Of a stretch of DNA of 64,000 bases, positions 6,618-53,319 are shown piece after piece (position 1 is the first letter of the stretch; every line of letters begins with the position of its first letter). Position numbers and translations under genes: made by a program. The stretch lies in assembly GCF_003289645.1 (NCBI RefSeq), contig NZ_QLYX01000008.1:208147-272146 (forward strand), written 5' to 3'. Below the pieces are notes generated by a model. That model did not search any database. It was not told the DNA's origin and saw only the letters and a program-made list of their open reading frames with translations. The DNA comes from Actinomadura craniellae. GTDB lineage: Bacteria; Actinomycetota; Actinomycetes; Streptosporangiales; Streptosporangiaceae.

Positions 6618-6790
6618 GTGATCCTCCAGCATCCGAGGCGCCCCAGCGCACCGAAAACCGAAGGATCAGCCGGGCCAGGGCCTTGGCTTGCTGATCCTTC
6701 AGCATCCGAGGTGCTGTGACGCCCTGAAAGCTGAAGGATCAGCGGGCGAAGGCCCTGGCCGGTGATCCTTCGGGTTTCGGGTCGCCTGAT
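6618..6790. repeat. Cluster of three REP/MITE-like inverted-repeat units (CTGATCCTTCAGC...GCTGAAGGATCAG)
   Basis: The central unit has perfect 13-bp arms; the same element family recurs at 35001..35128 and, degenerate, at about 52990..53045. Confidence 0.7.
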
Positions 6791-34064: not shown

Positions 34065-35003
34065 ATGCGCATACTCGTGACCGGCGGAGCCGGTTTCATC
34101 GGCTCCCACCTGGTGGACGCCTTCCTCGACCGGGGAGACGAGGTCACCGTCGTGGACATCGCGTCCGAGGAACGGTCCGTGCGGCTGAACGCCGGAGCCG
34201 CGCTGCACCGGGTCTCCGTCACCGACGCCGAGGCCCTGACCGCCGTGGTCCGCGCGGCCCGGCCCGAGGTGATCTGCCATCTCGCGGCGCAGATCGACGT
34301 CCGGATCTCGGTCACCGACCCGGCCGCCGACGCGATGACCAACGTGATCGGCACGATCAACGTGCTGACCGCCGCCCAGGAGGTGTCGGCGCGGGTGCTG
34401 TTCGCCTCCACCGGCGGGGCGCTGTACGGCCTGGACGCCAAGATCCCCTCGCCGGAGGAGCTGCTGCCGGTGCCCGAGGCGCCGTACGGCACCGCCAAGT
34501 ACTGCGCCGAGCAGTACATCGGCCTGTTCAACCGGTTGCACGGCGGCGCGCACTCGGCGCTGCGGCTGGGGAACGTCTACGGCCCGCGGCAGGACCCGAC
34601 CGGCGAGGCGGGCGTCGTGTCCATCTTCTGCGGCCGGGCCCTGGAGGGCGAGCGCCCCACCGTGTACGGGGACGGCGCGCAGACCCGCGACTATGTCTAC
34701 GTGGGGGACGTCGTCGCCGCCTTCCTCGCCGCGGCCGACGCCGCCCGCCCCGGGATCTGGAACATCGGCACGGGCCGCGAGACCAGCGTCCTCGACCTCG
34801 TCGAAGTCATCGGCCGCATCTCGGGCGCCCCCGTCGAGCCGGTGTTCGCCCCGGCCCGCCCCGGCGAGCTGCCGCGCAGCGCCCTCGACGTCGCCCGGGC
34901 GTCCCGCGACCTGAACTGGCAGGCCGCCACCTCGATGACCGACGGCGTCGCCCGCGTCCACGCCTGGATCCGCGACGGCGCGAACCCCCGCGCCCCCCGC
35001 TGA
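34065..35003 (+). CDS. NAD-dependent epimerase/dehydratase (UDP-glucose 4-epimerase-like)
   Basis: GGAGFIGSH Rossmann motif; catalytic YGTAK. Confidence 0.85.
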   Translation: MRILVTGGAGFIGSHLVDAFLDRGDEVTVVDIASEERSVRLNAGAALHRVSVTDAEALTAVVRAARPEVICHLAAQIDVRISVTDPAADAMTNVIGTINVLTAAQEVSARVLFASTGGALYGLDAKIPSPEELLPVPEAPYGTAKYCAEQYIGLFNRLHGGAHSALRLGNVYGPRQDPTGEAGVVSIFCGRALEGERPTVYGDGAQTRDYVYVGDVVAAFLAAADAARPGIWNIGTGRETSVLDLVEVIGRISGAPVEPVFAPARPGELPRSALDVARASRDLNWQAATSMTDGVARVHAWIRDGANPRAPR

Positions 35004-35128
35004 TCCTTCAGCTTTCGGTGCGTCATAACGCCTCGGATGCTGAAGGATCACCAGGTCAGGGCGATTCTCCGGTGATCCTTCGGCTTTCGAGGCGCCCTCG
35101 CGCCTCGAAAGCTGAAGGATCAGCCGGG
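35001..35128. repeat. Two REP/MITE-like inverted-repeat units of the GATCCTTCAGC family
   Basis: CTGATCCTTCAGC...GCTGAAGGATCAC and GGTGATCCTTCGGC...GCTGAAGGATCAGCC with a nested palindrome CTTTCGAGGCGC/GCGCCTCGAAAG. Confidence 0.75.
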
Positions 35129-36583
35129 GTAGGTCCACGGGCGGCCGGTGCCCTGATACTCCGCCACGGCGATGGGGTGGACGCCGGGGCGCATCCGGTC
35201 GGTGTAGAGGCGGCCGTGCAGGTGGTCGACCTCGTGCGCGACCAGGCGGGCGAGGGCGTCGGTGAAGACGGTGATGACCTGCCGTCCGTCCGGGGTGGTG
35301 TGCTCGACCTCCAGCCGCAGCGGCCGGGGGACGAGCCCGCGCACGTCGAAGAACGACAGGCAGCCCTCGTACCGCTCGTCCTCCTCGTCGGACTGCTCGA
35401 TGATCCGGGGGTTGAGCAGCACCAGCGGCTCGGCGTCGTCGCCGGGGGGCAGGACGACGGCGACCGCCCGGTCCACCCCGATCTGCGGGGCGGCGAGCCC
35501 CATTCCCTTGCCGAAGACGTGGTGCTCGCGCACGCGCTGCACCGCGGCCAGTAGTTCGTCGACCAGTTCGCGCACCTCGCCGGGCCGGGCGGGCAGGTCG
35601 ATCCGGCGGGCCGCCCGGCCGAGCCGGGGGTCGTCGCGCTGCACGATCCCGGCCGCCCGCATCCGGTCGCCGGCCGTCCTGAGCTCCGGTGGCGCGGTGT
35701 TCCCCGGCCCGGCGTGCTCGCGCAGCCGCCATTCCAGCCGGTACCGGCTGTTGAGCGGCGGGTCCTCGGTGGACCAGTCGAACACGTCGGTGTCGCCGTC
35801 CCGGCGCCGGGTGACGGGGGTGGGCAGTGGGGCGGCCTCGGCGGTGGCCGAGGTGTGCGTGCCCCACACCGCCGGCACCATGTCCGCGGGGAACACCAGG
35901 CGCACCGACAGCCGCAGGGTGTGCAGCCGGACGGCCCGCTGGAACCAGGGCCCCCACTTGTCCTCGCCCACCGTGTAGGCGTACTCCAGGGTGGCGCGCT
36001 CGCCGGGGTAGAGGGGGAACCGGCCGCGGTCGTTCTCGAAGCGCAGCCACACCTCCTTGAACGAGTCGCGGTCGAGCTTGACCTGCCAGTCCATCTCCTC
36101 GCCGTCGCAGCGGGCGGACAGCGCGAGCTCGTCGAAGGTCAGCGGGTGCCGCCGGTAGAGCCGGTTGGCGGCCTGCGGGTCGCCGGGGTGCCGGTCCACC
36201 GAGATGCGCATCAGGTACCGGGTGACCGGGTCGGGCCCGGTGTTGCGGATGGCGCGCCGCATGACGGCGGTGAAGGCGCCGGCCCGGTAGCGCAGCTCGG
36301 CGTGGTCGTGCTCCACCACCAGCCCGCCCGAGCCGCGCGGGGCGGGCGGCGCCGGCTGCTCGGTGCCCCCGGCGGACTGCCAGGCCCGCCAGATCTCGCC
36401 GCCCGCGCTCAGCGCGGCCTCGGCCCGCCGGGCGAAGTCGGCCGAGGCGGGGTGCCGGCCGTGCTCGACGTGCGAGATGTAGGACCGGTCGAATCCCATG
36501 GCGTCGGCCAGCGCCCGCCCGGTCATCCGCCGGCGCTTGCGCCACCGGGTGAGCACGCCCCCGAACGTCTCGACGTCGTCCAT
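35120..36583 (-). CDS. Fusion protein: Scr1-like XRE-HTH + DUF5753-like domain + complete peptide deformylase domain
   Basis: N-terminal Cro/C1 HTH (LTRWRKRRRMTGRALADAMGFDRSYISHVEHGR). C-terminal PDF motifs GMGLAAPQIG, EGCLS, HEVDHLHG. An internal Met at 35662 looks like a stand-alone PDF N-terminus, but no stop separates the parts. Confidence 0.7.
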   Translation of the reverse strand: MDDVETFGGVLTRWRKRRRMTGRALADAMGFDRSYISHVEHGRHPASADFARRAEAALSAGGEIWRAWQSAGGTEQPAPPAPRGSGGLVVEHDHAELRYRAGAFTAVMRRAIRNTGPDPVTRYLMRISVDRHPGDPQAANRLYRRHPLTFDELALSARCDGEEMDWQVKLDRDSFKEVWLRFENDRGRFPLYPGERATLEYAYTVGEDKWGPWFQRAVRLHTLRLSVRLVFPADMVPAVWGTHTSATAEAAPLPTPVTRRRDGDTDVFDWSTEDPPLNSRYRLEWRLREHAGPGNTAPPELRTAGDRMRAAGIVQRDDPRLGRAARRIDLPARPGEVRELVDELLAAVQRVREHHVFGKGMGLAAPQIGVDRAVAVVLPPGDDAEPLVLLNPRIIEQSDEEDERYEGCLSFFDVRGLVPRPLRLEVEHTTPDGRQVITVFTDALARLVAHEVDHLHGRLYTDRMRPGVHPIAVAEYQGTGRPWTYPG

Positions 36584-36978
36584 CGCGCCCCCGTGAACCG
36601 GTGTGAATGAACCGTGAATGACGGCCCATCACCCTGTCGTCACCCACTAACTAGACGATTACCTAATTTCGTGAGTTTTCCACCAGCGTGGCCGCTGCCG
36701 GTCAGTGAAGACGTGCGTGGAAGGTCGCGTCCGGCCTCGCGGTGACCCCTCGCCGCCACCGACCCCCGCGGAACGGAGGGGCCCGCGAAGATCTGCCGCG
36801 CGCGGGCGTATGAGCTGCGGACGCCCGCGCGCGGCCCCAACGCCGGCCGTGCGGTGCCGCGCCCCACCGTGAGGGAACTCGAAGGCGCGCACAAGGCGAT
36901 CCGCGAGATCTTCGTGCGGATGCCGGGGAGAAAGGCGAGCGGGCCGATCCGGGGGAGCGGACGGAGGGCCCGGTCAGG

Positions 36979-37485
36979 TCACGGGTGGGCGCGGAGCCGG
37001 CCGTCCTCGGCGGTGAGCCTGGCTTGGACGCCCTGCTCGCCGCAGTCGGGGCCGTTGGGGAAGCTCCCGCGCGGGGTGACGGTGAGGCTCCGGTCCAAGG
37101 CGGGTTCGGGGCCGGAACCGTGCAGCTTCAACGTGACCTGGACGGGACGCTTGGGCAGGTCAGGGACCATGGCGAAGCCGGTCAGGCCACCGGTGCGGAC
37201 GACCGAGGCGCCGCACGTGTCGTCGGGCCCGGTGCCCGTGCAGGTCTGCGGCGCGGCCGACGTGGCCGGGTCGAGCCGGAGTTCGGGGGTGTGGCAGGCG
37301 CCGTCCCAGCAGACCCGCAGGGACGCGCGTTCCACGCCGGCGGCCAGGGACGGGGCGACGTCCAGCCCGATCCCGGTCAGGCCGCCGATCGCCGTGCAGG
37401 CCTTCCCGCCGGACTGCACGCCGGACCCGCAGCCCGCCAGAGCGAACGCCATGCCCAGCGCCGCGAACTTCACATAACCGTGCAT
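36979..37485 (-). CDS. Lipoprotein, Cys-rich, unknown function
   Basis: Lipobox LAGC after signal peptide MHGYVKFAALGMAFALAG; GGAG RBS. Confidence 0.6.
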   Translation of the reverse strand: MHGYVKFAALGMAFALAGCGSGVQSGGKACTAIGGLTGIGLDVAPSLAAGVERASLRVCWDGACHTPELRLDPATSAAPQTCTGTGPDDTCGASVVRTGGLTGFAMVPDLPKRPVQVTLKLHGSGPEPALDRSLTVTPRGSFPNGPDCGEQGVQARLTAEDGRLRAHP

Positions 37486-52143: not shown

Positions 52144-53319
52144 TCACCCCCCGGCGCGGATCACCCGCTCCACGTGATCACTCTCCAGGACCCGCCGCCC
52201 CCAGTAAGGGCCGGCGGCGTTCAGCTTGTGCGTCAGCTTGACGATCAGCTGCCGGTCCTGCTCGGGAGTCTGCCCACCGGAGCGGACGAGCTGGGTGTAG
52301 CGGACGGTGTCCACGATGGCGGACTTCATCCGCTCATGCGCCAGGTACGTCTCCAGATCGGCCTGCCAGCCGCGAACGGCGTCCACCGGCATGACCCGCG
52401 CCCACCGCTGCAGCAGGGCGTGCCGCTCGTCGTCGAAATAGGCCATCTTGTGCAGGTGGACGGCCATCTCGTACACCGGGTCGCCCCACAGCGCCAGCTC
52501 CCAGTCCAGGAAGACGGTACGCCCCCCGGACACGATCATGTTCTTGCGGTGCACGTCGGAATGCACCAGCCGGAACGGCCGCCGCCCCAGCGTGTCCCAC
52601 CGCACCGGCGCCAGCGGCGCCCCCGGTATCCCCAGCCGCCGGAACTCCACCGCGTAGTCGTGCCGGAAGGTCTCGTACACCTCCCCGGTGGTCGCCGACA
52701 GCCGCCGCGCGAAGGCGGCCGTGTCCCCGTCGCCGGGCCAGTCGCCGGGCACCTCCGGCAACTCCCGCAACGGCACGTCCAGCAACCGCCGGAACAGCTC
52801 CGCCACGTCCTCCACCACGTGGACCGGCACCCGCGTCCCGCGCGGCGCGAGTTCGTCGAGCAGAGTCCCATCAACGAACTCGTGCACCTGAAAGGCGGGC
52901 TCCGTCGAAACGAACAGCAATCGCGGAGCACGACTGCCCCTCCCACCCCCGGCACGCTCCGGCTCCGCAAGCTCACCCACCGAAGATGCGCCGCGGGTGA
53001 TCCTTCGGGATTCGGGGTGCTCCGGCGCCTCGAACCCTGATGGATCATGCTCCAGGTGGGGAGCGATGGCGGCCAGGACCTCATGTTCGGGCCAGATCCG
53101 CAGGTCCATGCCATCCGCCCCGGCGATGGGCGTCCGGACCAGCAGGTCGCCGATTCGCACGTTGCGGTTGTAGAAACCACAGGCAGCCTCGGGAGACCGT
53201 GCGGCCGCCGCGTACAGCTCGGCCGGATCCAGTCCGAACAGCTCGGCAGCGTGGGTGGTGGAGGTCTTGTCCGGATTGCGCCGAGCACCATCCGGCACCA
53301 TGGGCGATTGCTCCTGCAC
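52144..53319 (-). CDS. Aminoglycoside/choline-kinase-type phosphotransferase (APH family)
   Basis: Brenner motif HSDVHRKNMIV; DWELALWGD. Contains an in-frame low-complexity segment coincident with a degenerate GATCCTTCGG repeat unit. Confidence 0.75.
   Translation of the reverse strand: MQEQSPMVPDGARRNPDKTSTTHAAELFGLDPAELYAAAARSPEAACGFYNRNVRIGDLLVRTPIAGADGMDLRIWPEHEVLAAIAPHLEHDPSGFEAPEHPESRRITRGASSVGELAEPERAGGGRGSRAPRLLFVSTEPAFQVHEFVDGTLLDELAPRGTRVPVHVVEDVAELFRRLLDVPLRELPEVPGDWPGDGDTAAFARRLSATTGEVYETFRHDYAVEFRRLGIPGAPLAPVRWDTLGRRPFRLVHSDVHRKNMIVSGGRTVFLDWELALWGDPVYEMAVHLHKMAYFDDERHALLQRWARVMPVDAVRGWQADLETYLAHERMKSAIVDTVRYTQLVRSGGQTPEQDRQLIVKLTHKLNAAGPYWGRRVLESDHVERVIRAGG

Follow-up and report, generated by a model that had tools for sequence, protein, structure and literature searches.

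An actinomycete protein family joining a helix-turn-helix domain, a predicted beta-sandwich domain and a complete peptide deformylase

A 64-kb stretch of the Actinomadura craniellae genome (contig NZ_QLYX01000008.1, positions 208,147 to 272,146; here called the window, in whose numbering the gene is described) carries on its minus strand, at 35120..36583, a gene whose product combines an XRE-type helix-turn-helix (HTH) with a complete, apparently catalytic peptide deformylase (PDF) in one polypeptide. The two are separated by a domain without a Pfam family, designated MID (middle domain). Comparison of orthologues indicated that the HTH-MID-PDF fusion is old, not recent, and that it defines an uncharacterised actinomycete family, because the same unbroken architecture was found across lineages, while the linker varied like an ordinary interdomain linker. 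It is tentatively proposed that the gene is an old, self-contained actinomycete module, a self-repressed accessory PDF in which the MID-PDF unit would sense deformylation stress or PDF inhibitors.

Architecture of the gene and its product

Analysis of the window showed a single unbroken open reading frame (ORF) of 487 aa plus stop codon, as an earlier note on this DNA had described without stating the strand. The G+C fraction at third codon positions (GC3) was 0.97 across the whole frame, and the protein matched the NCBI entry "formylmethionine deformylase [Actinomadura craniellae]" with 100% identity.

The hmmscan analysis of the whole protein revealed a HTH_31 match at aa 7–67 (E 1e-10) and a match to HTH_3 as well. 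These profile matches and a five-helix fold identified aa 7–70 (36374..36565, minus strand) as an HTH of the XRE/Cro-C1 type, in agreement with the Cro/C1-type HTH named in the earlier note. The recognition-helix region, S34-Y-I-S-H38, was nearly invariant across the family.

The PDF domain was located at aa 304–470 (35174..35674, minus strand). The Pep_deformylase profile matched aa 313–466 (E 7e-34) over its full length (profile positions 4–152 of 156), and all three catalytic and metal-binding motifs of PF01327 (GxGxAAxQ, EGCLS and HExxH) were found, so that the full-length PDF claimed from the letters alone was borne out. Motif 1 reads GMGLAAPQ (G360–Q367, nt 35483–35506), motif 2 EGCLS (E406–S410, nt 35354–35368) and motif 3 HEVDH (H450–H454, nt 35222–35236), all on the minus strand. 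Residue R415 is the equivalent of Arg97 of the E. coli enzyme. The protein fell below the cut-offs of the housekeeping def equivalogs, scoring 99.2 with TIGR00079 (cut-off 103.95) and 105.9 with NF001159 (cut-off 125). The domain is followed by a conserved C-terminal tail (aa 471–487, 35123..35173, minus strand) in which Y476, G480 and W483 are invariant in the family; the long C-terminal helix of type 1B PDFs was not predicted for this tail. No fmt gene was seen adjoining the PDF gene in the window or in the annotated loci, unannotated gene clusters not having been checked for fmt.

An internal methionine, M308 (codon 35660..35662, minus strand), stands at the N-terminus of the PDF and is followed by RAAGIVQRDDPRL. 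The methionine is kept at this position in 69 of 72 members although the neighbouring residues vary. A Shine-Dalgarno-like motif was found upstream of it in 0 of 69 members (background 14%), and in a split orthologue the PDF gene begins at a GTG nine codons upstream of the equivalent methionine. M308 is therefore taken as structural; the residue pointed out in the earlier note is present, and an independent translation start there was rejected.

Fold and identity of the middle domain

Pfam showed no family between about aa 75 and 305 of the protein (hmmscan, E ≤ 1), and no solved structure covered more than its PDF part. AlphaFold2 was run on the full-length protein with the family alignment, and the model contained three well-defined domains and two disordered linkers (predicted local distance difference test, pLDDT, 83). 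When aa 86–292 were modelled alone, an all-beta sandwich was obtained with a pLDDT of 91.5 and a predicted template modelling score (pTM) of 0.87. MID was delimited as a sandwich of about 200 aa at aa 88–286 (35726..36322, minus strand). In its predicted fold MID is similar to the N-terminal domains of OST1/ribophorin I, of DUF3857 and of M1 aminopeptidases, and a MID-like fold recurs immediately N-terminal to peptide hydrolases. However, these sandwiches share only 5–17% sequence identity with MID, which is also found without a hydrolase after it, and a scan of 18 middle domains at E ≤ 10 gave no significant Pfam match and no membership of Peptidase_M1_N, DUF3857 or ribophorin I at profile level. 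On the basis of these models, MID is considered a new domain without a Pfam family and a previously undescribed beta-sandwich adaptor.

The earlier note had read this region as a DUF5753-like domain and the protein as Scr1-type. Scr1/Scr2 XRE-DUF397 pairs (WhiJ/BldB-like, Streptomyces) are defined by a DUF5753 domain and a DUF397 partner (PMC6262351, PMC10364602). The present family resembles them in its N-terminal HTH_31/XRE domain, which is abundant in actinomycetes, but it has neither DUF5753, a DUF397 partner nor an AbaA-like neighbour, and its HTH is followed by a beta-sandwich and an enzyme. No DUF5753 match was obtained at E ≤ 1 for the whole protein or at E ≤ 10 for the 18 middle domains, and hhalign of the MID profile against a genuine HTH_31+DUF5753 protein gave a probability of 0.1%; the Pfam scans and hhalign ruled out the DUF5753/Scr1 assignment, and the all-beta model of the middle region agrees with this. 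No DUF397 gene lies downstream in the window, where 116 nt of palindromic repeats are followed by a convergent NAD-dependent epimerase gene. In 72 related loci, where most neighbours are without Pfam annotation, no gene cluster of small-DUF397 size recurs directly downstream.

Genuine WhiJ/Scr1-type sets (HATPase_c_2, HTH_31+DUF5753, DUF397) were observed in two of the loci, at L001 2873–4624 and L002 16100–17470, and sit 3–7 kb from the HTH-MID-PDF gene. Their proximity is probably coincidental, because such sets are very abundant in actinomycetes. They may account for the Scr1 association made earlier.

Distribution and age of the fusion

A protein search covered 5.8 billion proteins, and the best 120 clusters were considered. 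These had 56–73% identity to the query at 85–100% query coverage, nearly all with the same HTH and PDF pair of Pfam matches, and came from Actinomadura, Nonomuraea, Nocardiopsis, Streptosporangium, Planobispora, Streptomyces and Egibacteraceae. A genome scan with one genome per species found at least 585 stretches encoding relatives, of which 80 loci were kept. The fusion was uninterrupted in all 80 (Streptosporangiales, Micromonosporaceae, Streptomyces, Pseudonocardiales and Egibacteraceae), and the scan added Micromonosporaceae (Micromonospora, Actinoplanes, Asanoa and others) and Pseudonocardiales to the sources of the clusters. Full-length relatives were thus present in at least five actinomycete lineages.

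The recent loss of a stop codon, which had been suggested as the origin of the gene, is contradicted by the same unbroken fusion in these 80 loci and in the best 120 clusters, and the comparison of orthologues ruled out a sequencing error or a recent fusion. Uniformly separate HTH and def genes, the outcome that the earlier note had named as telling against a fusion, were not what the orthologous loci showed: the fused form is the rule and the split form the exception. Two genes behind the fusion are supported at the evolutionary scale by the rare split orthologues, but not as a recent event.

Among 84 members, the mean pairwise identity was 0.57 for the HTH, 0.62 for MID and 0.61 for the PDF, but merely 0.22–0.25 for the two linkers, which are variable and disordered. 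PDF motifs 1, 2 and 3 were found in 83, 83 and 84 of the 84 members, and R415 was retained in 83. Full-length copies were located on at least 16 actinomycete plasmids, and 12 mobile elements of the IMG/VR database carry the gene. Isolated phage genomes contained only stand-alone PDFs with 28–38% identity and no full-length relative.

Searches of one literature library for an HTH-PDF fusion, or for a PDF in conflict systems, gave nothing relevant and no link of PDF to HTH or to Trypco1. The view that an HTH regulator fused to a PDF is unusual was upheld, as no paper describing such an architecture was found. In the databases the family is named only "peptide deformylase", a label that conceals the regulator part. 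Accessory PDFs and enzyme-regulator fusions are both of known kinds; the family has features of both and contains the new domain MID.

Pairing of MID and PDF in other architectures

A HMMER scan with MID alone of 1.84 billion representatives found 356 proteins, which were analysed with Pfam and local hidden Markov models. The architectures included HTH-MID-PDF, Trypsin_2-MID-PDF and DUF4062-MID-PDF, as well as MID without PDF in DUF4062-MID, Metallophos-MID, Trypsin_2...MID and nSTAND3...MID-Inositol_P. DUF4062 has been described as TIR-like. HTH-MID without PDF also occurs as complete genes (e.g., in loci L083 and L084), and HTH-MID is therefore a regulator module in its own right.

In both of the Metallophos-MID loci examined, a separate PDF gene (179 or 188 aa) lies directly upstream. 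Its product is of the same subtype as the PDF of the window protein, with FEGCLSFF, AHEIDHL and the conserved C-terminal tail. The two pairs were located at L086 685–2950 and L088 6401–8689, with HisG-like and AIRS (PurM/ThiL-like) genes nearby; the source annotation of L088 misses the PDF gene and calls a 189-aa ORF on the opposite strand there. One Metallophos-MID locus is near SIR2/AAA and integrase genes.

In two loci, Trypsin_2-MID-PDF (654–679 aa) is accompanied by Trypco1, a HAD hydrolase and a separate HTH-MID gene. These clusters lie at L084 7001–11284, on a 10-Mb actinomycete chromosome, and at L085 279–4608, on an unrelated metagenome contig. Kaur et al. 2020 (PMC7159879) described conflict systems for which Trypco1 is a marker, and the HTH-MID/Trypco1/Trypsin_2-MID-PDF/HAD cluster looks like an undescribed conflict-type system using the MID-PDF unit.

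Split orthologues were found on two plasmids of Streptomyces cellulosae, where HTH-MID (323 aa) and PDF (189 aa) are encoded by separate genes. The two genes overlap by 4 nt (GTGA), an AGGAG ribosome-binding site precedes the GTG by 5 nt, and the pair forms a translationally coupled operon. Plasmids of the pFRL5 type carry a truncated MID remnant and a PDF gene. The PDFs of the split forms are 56–57% identical to the window protein and belong to the family's own PDF subtype. Because they carry this subtype and stand in small number beside the fused plasmid copies, the split forms look like secondary fissions, the fused state being by far the commoner.

The link between MID and PDF was therefore seen in three independent contexts, namely Metallophos-MID with PDF, the Trypsin_2-MID-PDF clusters, and split HTH-MID with PDF. 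Gene and domain arrangement thus indicates a functional coupling of MID to this PDF subfamily that goes beyond the fusion.

Candidate operator upstream of the gene

Alignment of upstream regions revealed a candidate autoregulatory operator array at 36593..36643 (minus strand). It consists, in the direction of transcription, of the half-site GTGAC (36643–36639) and N6, the half-site GTGAT (36632–36628) and N6, and the half-sites TCATTCAC (36621–36614 and 36610–36603) with GGT between them; after a further N6 follows the element TCAC (36596–36593), which ends 10 nt before the ATG. The family consensus, from aligned upstream regions of Streptosporangiales, Streptomyces and Egibacteraceae, is RTGAR-N6-RTGA-N7-TCAYTCAC-N3-TCAYTCAC. 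At its core is the 15-bp palindrome RTGA-N7-TCAY, flanked at +/-11 bp by extra half-sites, a spacing that places all four sites on the same face of the helix.

The array is the sole such site in the window, where 0.03 would be expected by chance. In 63 loci, TCAYTCAY had 39 matches in the 210-nt upstream windows (13.2 kb) and 31 in the remaining 1180 kb, an enrichment of about 112-fold upstream of the gene, and it was on the same strand in all but one case. Of the 28 scanned loci having TCAYTCAY upstream of the ORF, 27, none of them from Micromonosporaceae, had the half-site array directly before it. It was also present upstream of 11 of the 12 mobile-element copies and of plasmid and split copies, and within +/-10 kb it was essentially unique to the gene's own promoter. 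No Rfam match to a leader RNA element was obtained for the upstream region. Since the half-sites are conserved, the spacers vary and Rfam gave no match, the array favours a protein operator rather than an RNA helix, with the gene's own HTH as the obvious candidate binder; from this arrangement we infer autoregulation. A role of the protein as master repressor of the mobile elements that carry it was unsupported, because no further operator copies were found within +/-10 kb.

Two further observations concern the upstream regions of other members. In the Micromonosporaceae loci (L023, L029, L033, L035–L081) another conserved block, TGTCAAG-N5-TGTCG-N2-AA, lies between the ORF and a divergent FhuF-like gene, about 130–190 nt upstream of the ORF; the HTH recognition helix in these loci is the same despite this different block. 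The HTH of the IMG/VR copies reads SYVSKVE where others have SYISHVE, with the same operator.

In the window, an unusually AT-rich patch at 36645–36690 (...GAAATTAGGTAATCGTCTAGTTAG...) lies directly upstream of the candidate operator and may be the promoter. A probable lipoprotein gene with a lipobox (MHGYVKFAALGMAFALAGCGSG...), without Pfam match, is located upstream of the ORF on the same strand (36979–37485, minus strand); it had escaped the filter based on G+C content at third and second codon positions. The intergenic region between this gene and the ORF measures 395 nt.

Genomic context of the family

Neighbour clustering of about 940 ORFs from 83 loci showed no universal neighbour gene, and synteny was lineage-specific only; the unit therefore looks autonomous. 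In the window, the neighbours encode an epimerase, a lipoprotein, a metallo-beta-lactamase–rhodanese protein and an ABC transporter, and no mobile-element features were seen.

In Micromonosporaceae, the gene is syntenic and core-like, between a divergent FhuF-like gene and genes for a flavohaemoglobin and a CPBP protease. In one Streptomyces group, the gene lies divergently beside a cluster made up of QueC, QueE, PTPS, DUF6884, reverse-transcriptase, FGE-sulfatase and glycosyltransferase genes. This Que-type cluster was observed in L002 (1–7755), L024, L026–L028, L046, L052, L057 and L078; it also has QueE-like radical SAM, RVT_1, PIG-L and phosphoribosyltransferase genes, and may represent either a 7-deazapurine modification system or a cluster for a nucleoside natural product. 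In Nocardiopsis, the gene is divergent from sugar-modifying genes.

In the 12 IMG/VR elements, the gene stands alone on its strand between FtsK/SpoIIIE-like transfer modules and Rep/DnaB/methylase modules. These contigs (L089–L100, 37–78 kb) form a mosaic mobile-element family with the gene at a fixed position, and their modules encode an FtsK/SpoIIIE-like translocase, a replication initiator, a DnaB-like helicase, a DNA methyltransferase and a ParB-like protein. One plasmid copy was found about 9 kb from a type I-E CRISPR-Cas operon.

Proposed function and alternative explanations

In the tentatively preferred reading, that of a self-repressed accessory PDF, the protein, probably as a dimer of dimers, would bind the four same-face half-sites of the array that ends about 10 nt ahead of its start codon, and the bound HTH would hold synthesis of the protein low. 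The MID-PDF pair would be the sensing and enzymatic unit, triggered by a change at the PDF active site: accumulating formyl-peptides, or a natural PDF inhibitor of the actinonin, matlystatin or lydiamycin kind, might occupy it, or its metal might be lost or oxidised. MID would pass this change to the HTH, repression would be relieved, and more deformylase would be made. A homeostat in one polypeptide, or an inducible accessory PDF, would result. In this scheme, DNA binding to the array, the deformylase activity and the nature of the signal are predictions from sequence features.

A link to PDF inhibitors, which was proposed in the earlier note, stays plausible. Actinomycetes produce actinonin, matlystatins and lydiamycin (PMC12130866), and PDF overexpression and accessory PDFs on mobile elements are documented routes of resistance to PDF inhibitors (PMC12690207, PMC12130866). 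The family shares with accessory PDFs the trait of an extra copy on mobile DNA, as seen from its plasmid and IMG/VR copies. In Vibrio Def2, the change of Arg97 to Tyr lowers actinonin affinity (PMC12690207). This affinity-lowering substitution of the Def2/OrdE type was not found in the family, and the near-universal R415 suits an inhibitor-binding sensor or a titrating decoy better than an insensitive bypass enzyme.

Several points weigh against the self-repressed accessory PDF. The pTM of the full-length model was 0.47, so that domain-domain contacts are not reliable and the model is uninformative on how the domains touch. A consensus promoter and terminator scan of 34900–37100 found nothing, and no promoter was identified. 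Micromonosporaceae are without the TCAYTCAC array and have no more than one RTGAR-like element, which means that autoregulation through this operator does not extend to the whole family. Finally, the N-terminal domains of MID relatives are typical of conflict effectors (Trypsin_2 with Trypco1, DUF4062, Metallophos), and such partners suit an immune or abortive function more than that of a simple resistance homeostat.

This last point leads to an alternative that we consider unlikely while giving it some weight, in which the gene is a conflict or immune surveillance module. MID-PDF would be a guard or decoy reporting when phage factors or competitors' PDF inhibitors attack N-terminal protein processing, the N-terminal domain would be an exchangeable output, and the deformylase chemistry would serve mainly for recognition and not for bulk deformylation. 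The occurrence of MID behind Trypsin_2, DUF4062, Metallophos and nSTAND3 regions agrees with this, as do the proximity of Trypsin_2-MID-PDF to Trypco1 and a separate HTH-MID gene in two independent loci, the Metallophos-MID locus near SIR2/AAA and integrase genes, and the frequency of the family on Streptomyces plasmids and mosaic mobile elements, with one copy near type I-E CRISPR-Cas; prophages are also known to respond to PDF inhibition (PMC12157366). However, HTH-MID-PDF evolves slowly and evenly (0.57–0.62 identity across orders) without the diversification of an immune sensor, the gene is syntenic and core-like in Micromonosporaceae, no partner effector gene was found, the operator occurs only at the gene's own promoter, and the PADLOC matches were generic and at HTH level only. 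Neither a Trypco gene nor a STAND or vWA-MoxR core adjoined the window gene or its full-length orthologues, Trypco1 being found only with the Trypsin_2-MID-PDF relatives.

A broader reading, which we regard as doubtful, is that MID-PDF is an unrecognised sensor of the N-terminal deformylation state coupled to interchangeable outputs. Its inputs would be formyl-peptide load, competitors' PDF inhibitors and phage interference, and its outputs HTH, Trypsin_2/Trypco1, DUF4062 and a phosphoesterase. If true, it would represent a new class of translation-integrity surveillance in filamentous actinomycetes, of which the window gene would be the transcriptional, self-amplifying version.

It is improbable that the protein is an ordinary transcription factor in which the PDF is a ligand-binding or metal/redox sensor controlling lineage-specific divergent neighbours, that is, FhuF-like and flavohaemoglobin genes in Micromonosporaceae, QueC/QueE/DUF6884/reverse-transcriptase genes in Streptomyces and the sugar-modifying operon in Nocardiopsis. 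Most loci have a divergent upstream neighbour, so that the operator region is shared; the flanks in Micromonosporaceae encode an FhuF-like iron reductase and flavohaemoglobin, and PDF is an Fe(II) enzyme inactivated by nitric oxide (PMC7683392), which is counted for this explanation. On the other hand, the neighbours differ completely among lineages, the upstream gene in the window is on the same strand and 395 nt away, no second operator copy is found by other genes within +/-10 kb, and the catalytic residues are kept throughout, which a pure binding role would not need. The version of the earlier note, in which a recent stop loss or a sequencing or frameshift error fused an Scr1-type XRE-DUF5753 gene to def, could appeal to the internal methionine where a stand-alone PDF would begin and to the split orthologues, which show that the halves can be separate genes, but it is effectively refuted by the orthologue comparison, in which the unbroken architecture extends through all 80 loci and the best 120 clusters down to 52–56% identity, DUF5753 and DUF397 were both not found, linker length and sequence vary as in an ordinary interdomain linker, and the split forms look like secondary fissions.

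Comparison with known systems

Trigger enzymes such as PutA, BirA and NadR have a DNA-binding domain and an active enzyme in one polypeptide. The logic predicted here by analogy would be similar, active-site occupancy setting DNA binding and hence expression, but the folds and chemistry are unrelated, and the enzyme of the present family acts on protein N-termini and not on a metabolite. In ImmR-ImmA, DdrO-IrrE and CapH-CapP, an XRE repressor is paired with an M78/ImmA-family HExxH peptidase that cleaves the repressor; the hydrolase of HTH-MID-PDF, in contrast, belongs to the true PDFs, having the Cys ligand and the motif 1 Gln.

The accessory PDFs Vibrio Def2, OrdE and Rhodococcus LydA (PMC12690207, PMC12157366, PMC12130866), which are encoded on mobile elements or within biosynthetic clusters, have, like the present family, three intact catalytic motifs. 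In both, the gene is often borne on plasmids or other elements and is presumably a second PDF copy, in a setting with inhibitor-making neighbour bacteria. However, Def2, OrdE and LydA are single-domain proteins of about 170–190 aa that confer resistance through lowered inhibitor affinity (e.g., R97Y), whereas HTH-MID-PDF keeps the Arg97 equivalent and has about 300 extra N-terminal residues (HTH and MID) and its own candidate operator. The def-fmt fusion found in Exiguobacterium (PMC12690207) is likewise natural and couples a functional PDF with another domain, but its partner is a formyltransferase of the same pathway, not a regulator, and it is confined to one genus. It is the sole PDF fusion discussed in the 2025 survey of accessory PDFs, which does not mention the HTH-MID-PDF family (PMC12690207).

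PDF is an antibiotic target, natural PDF inhibitors are weapons in microbial competition, and accessory PDFs have been surveyed only recently. A PDF hard-wired to a DNA-binding domain with a conserved candidate operator offers a testable case of an enzyme that perhaps reports its own inhibition or substrate load. The repeated pairing of MID with PDF, protease, DUF4062 and phosphoesterase suggests a wider use of the deformylation state as a signal. The idea of an inducible decoy, if true, would bear on how PDF inhibitors are used and on resistance-guided mining for the gene clusters that make them.

Repeat units in the window

REP-like (repetitive extragenic palindromic-like) units of about 48 nt (GATCCTTCAGCTTTCG..GCG...CGC..CGAAAGCTGAAGGATC) were observed at 35002–35121, 6620–6784 and 53026–53046. 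The gap separating the HTH-MID-PDF gene from the convergent epimerase gene is taken up by two tandem units, the last of which overlaps the stop codon of the ORF. The half-unit had 10 matches in the window, where 0 were expected, and a 131-nt stretch of these repeats folds at -89 kcal/mol (z = -10.7). The units may be a bidirectional terminator or a mobile intergenic repeat.

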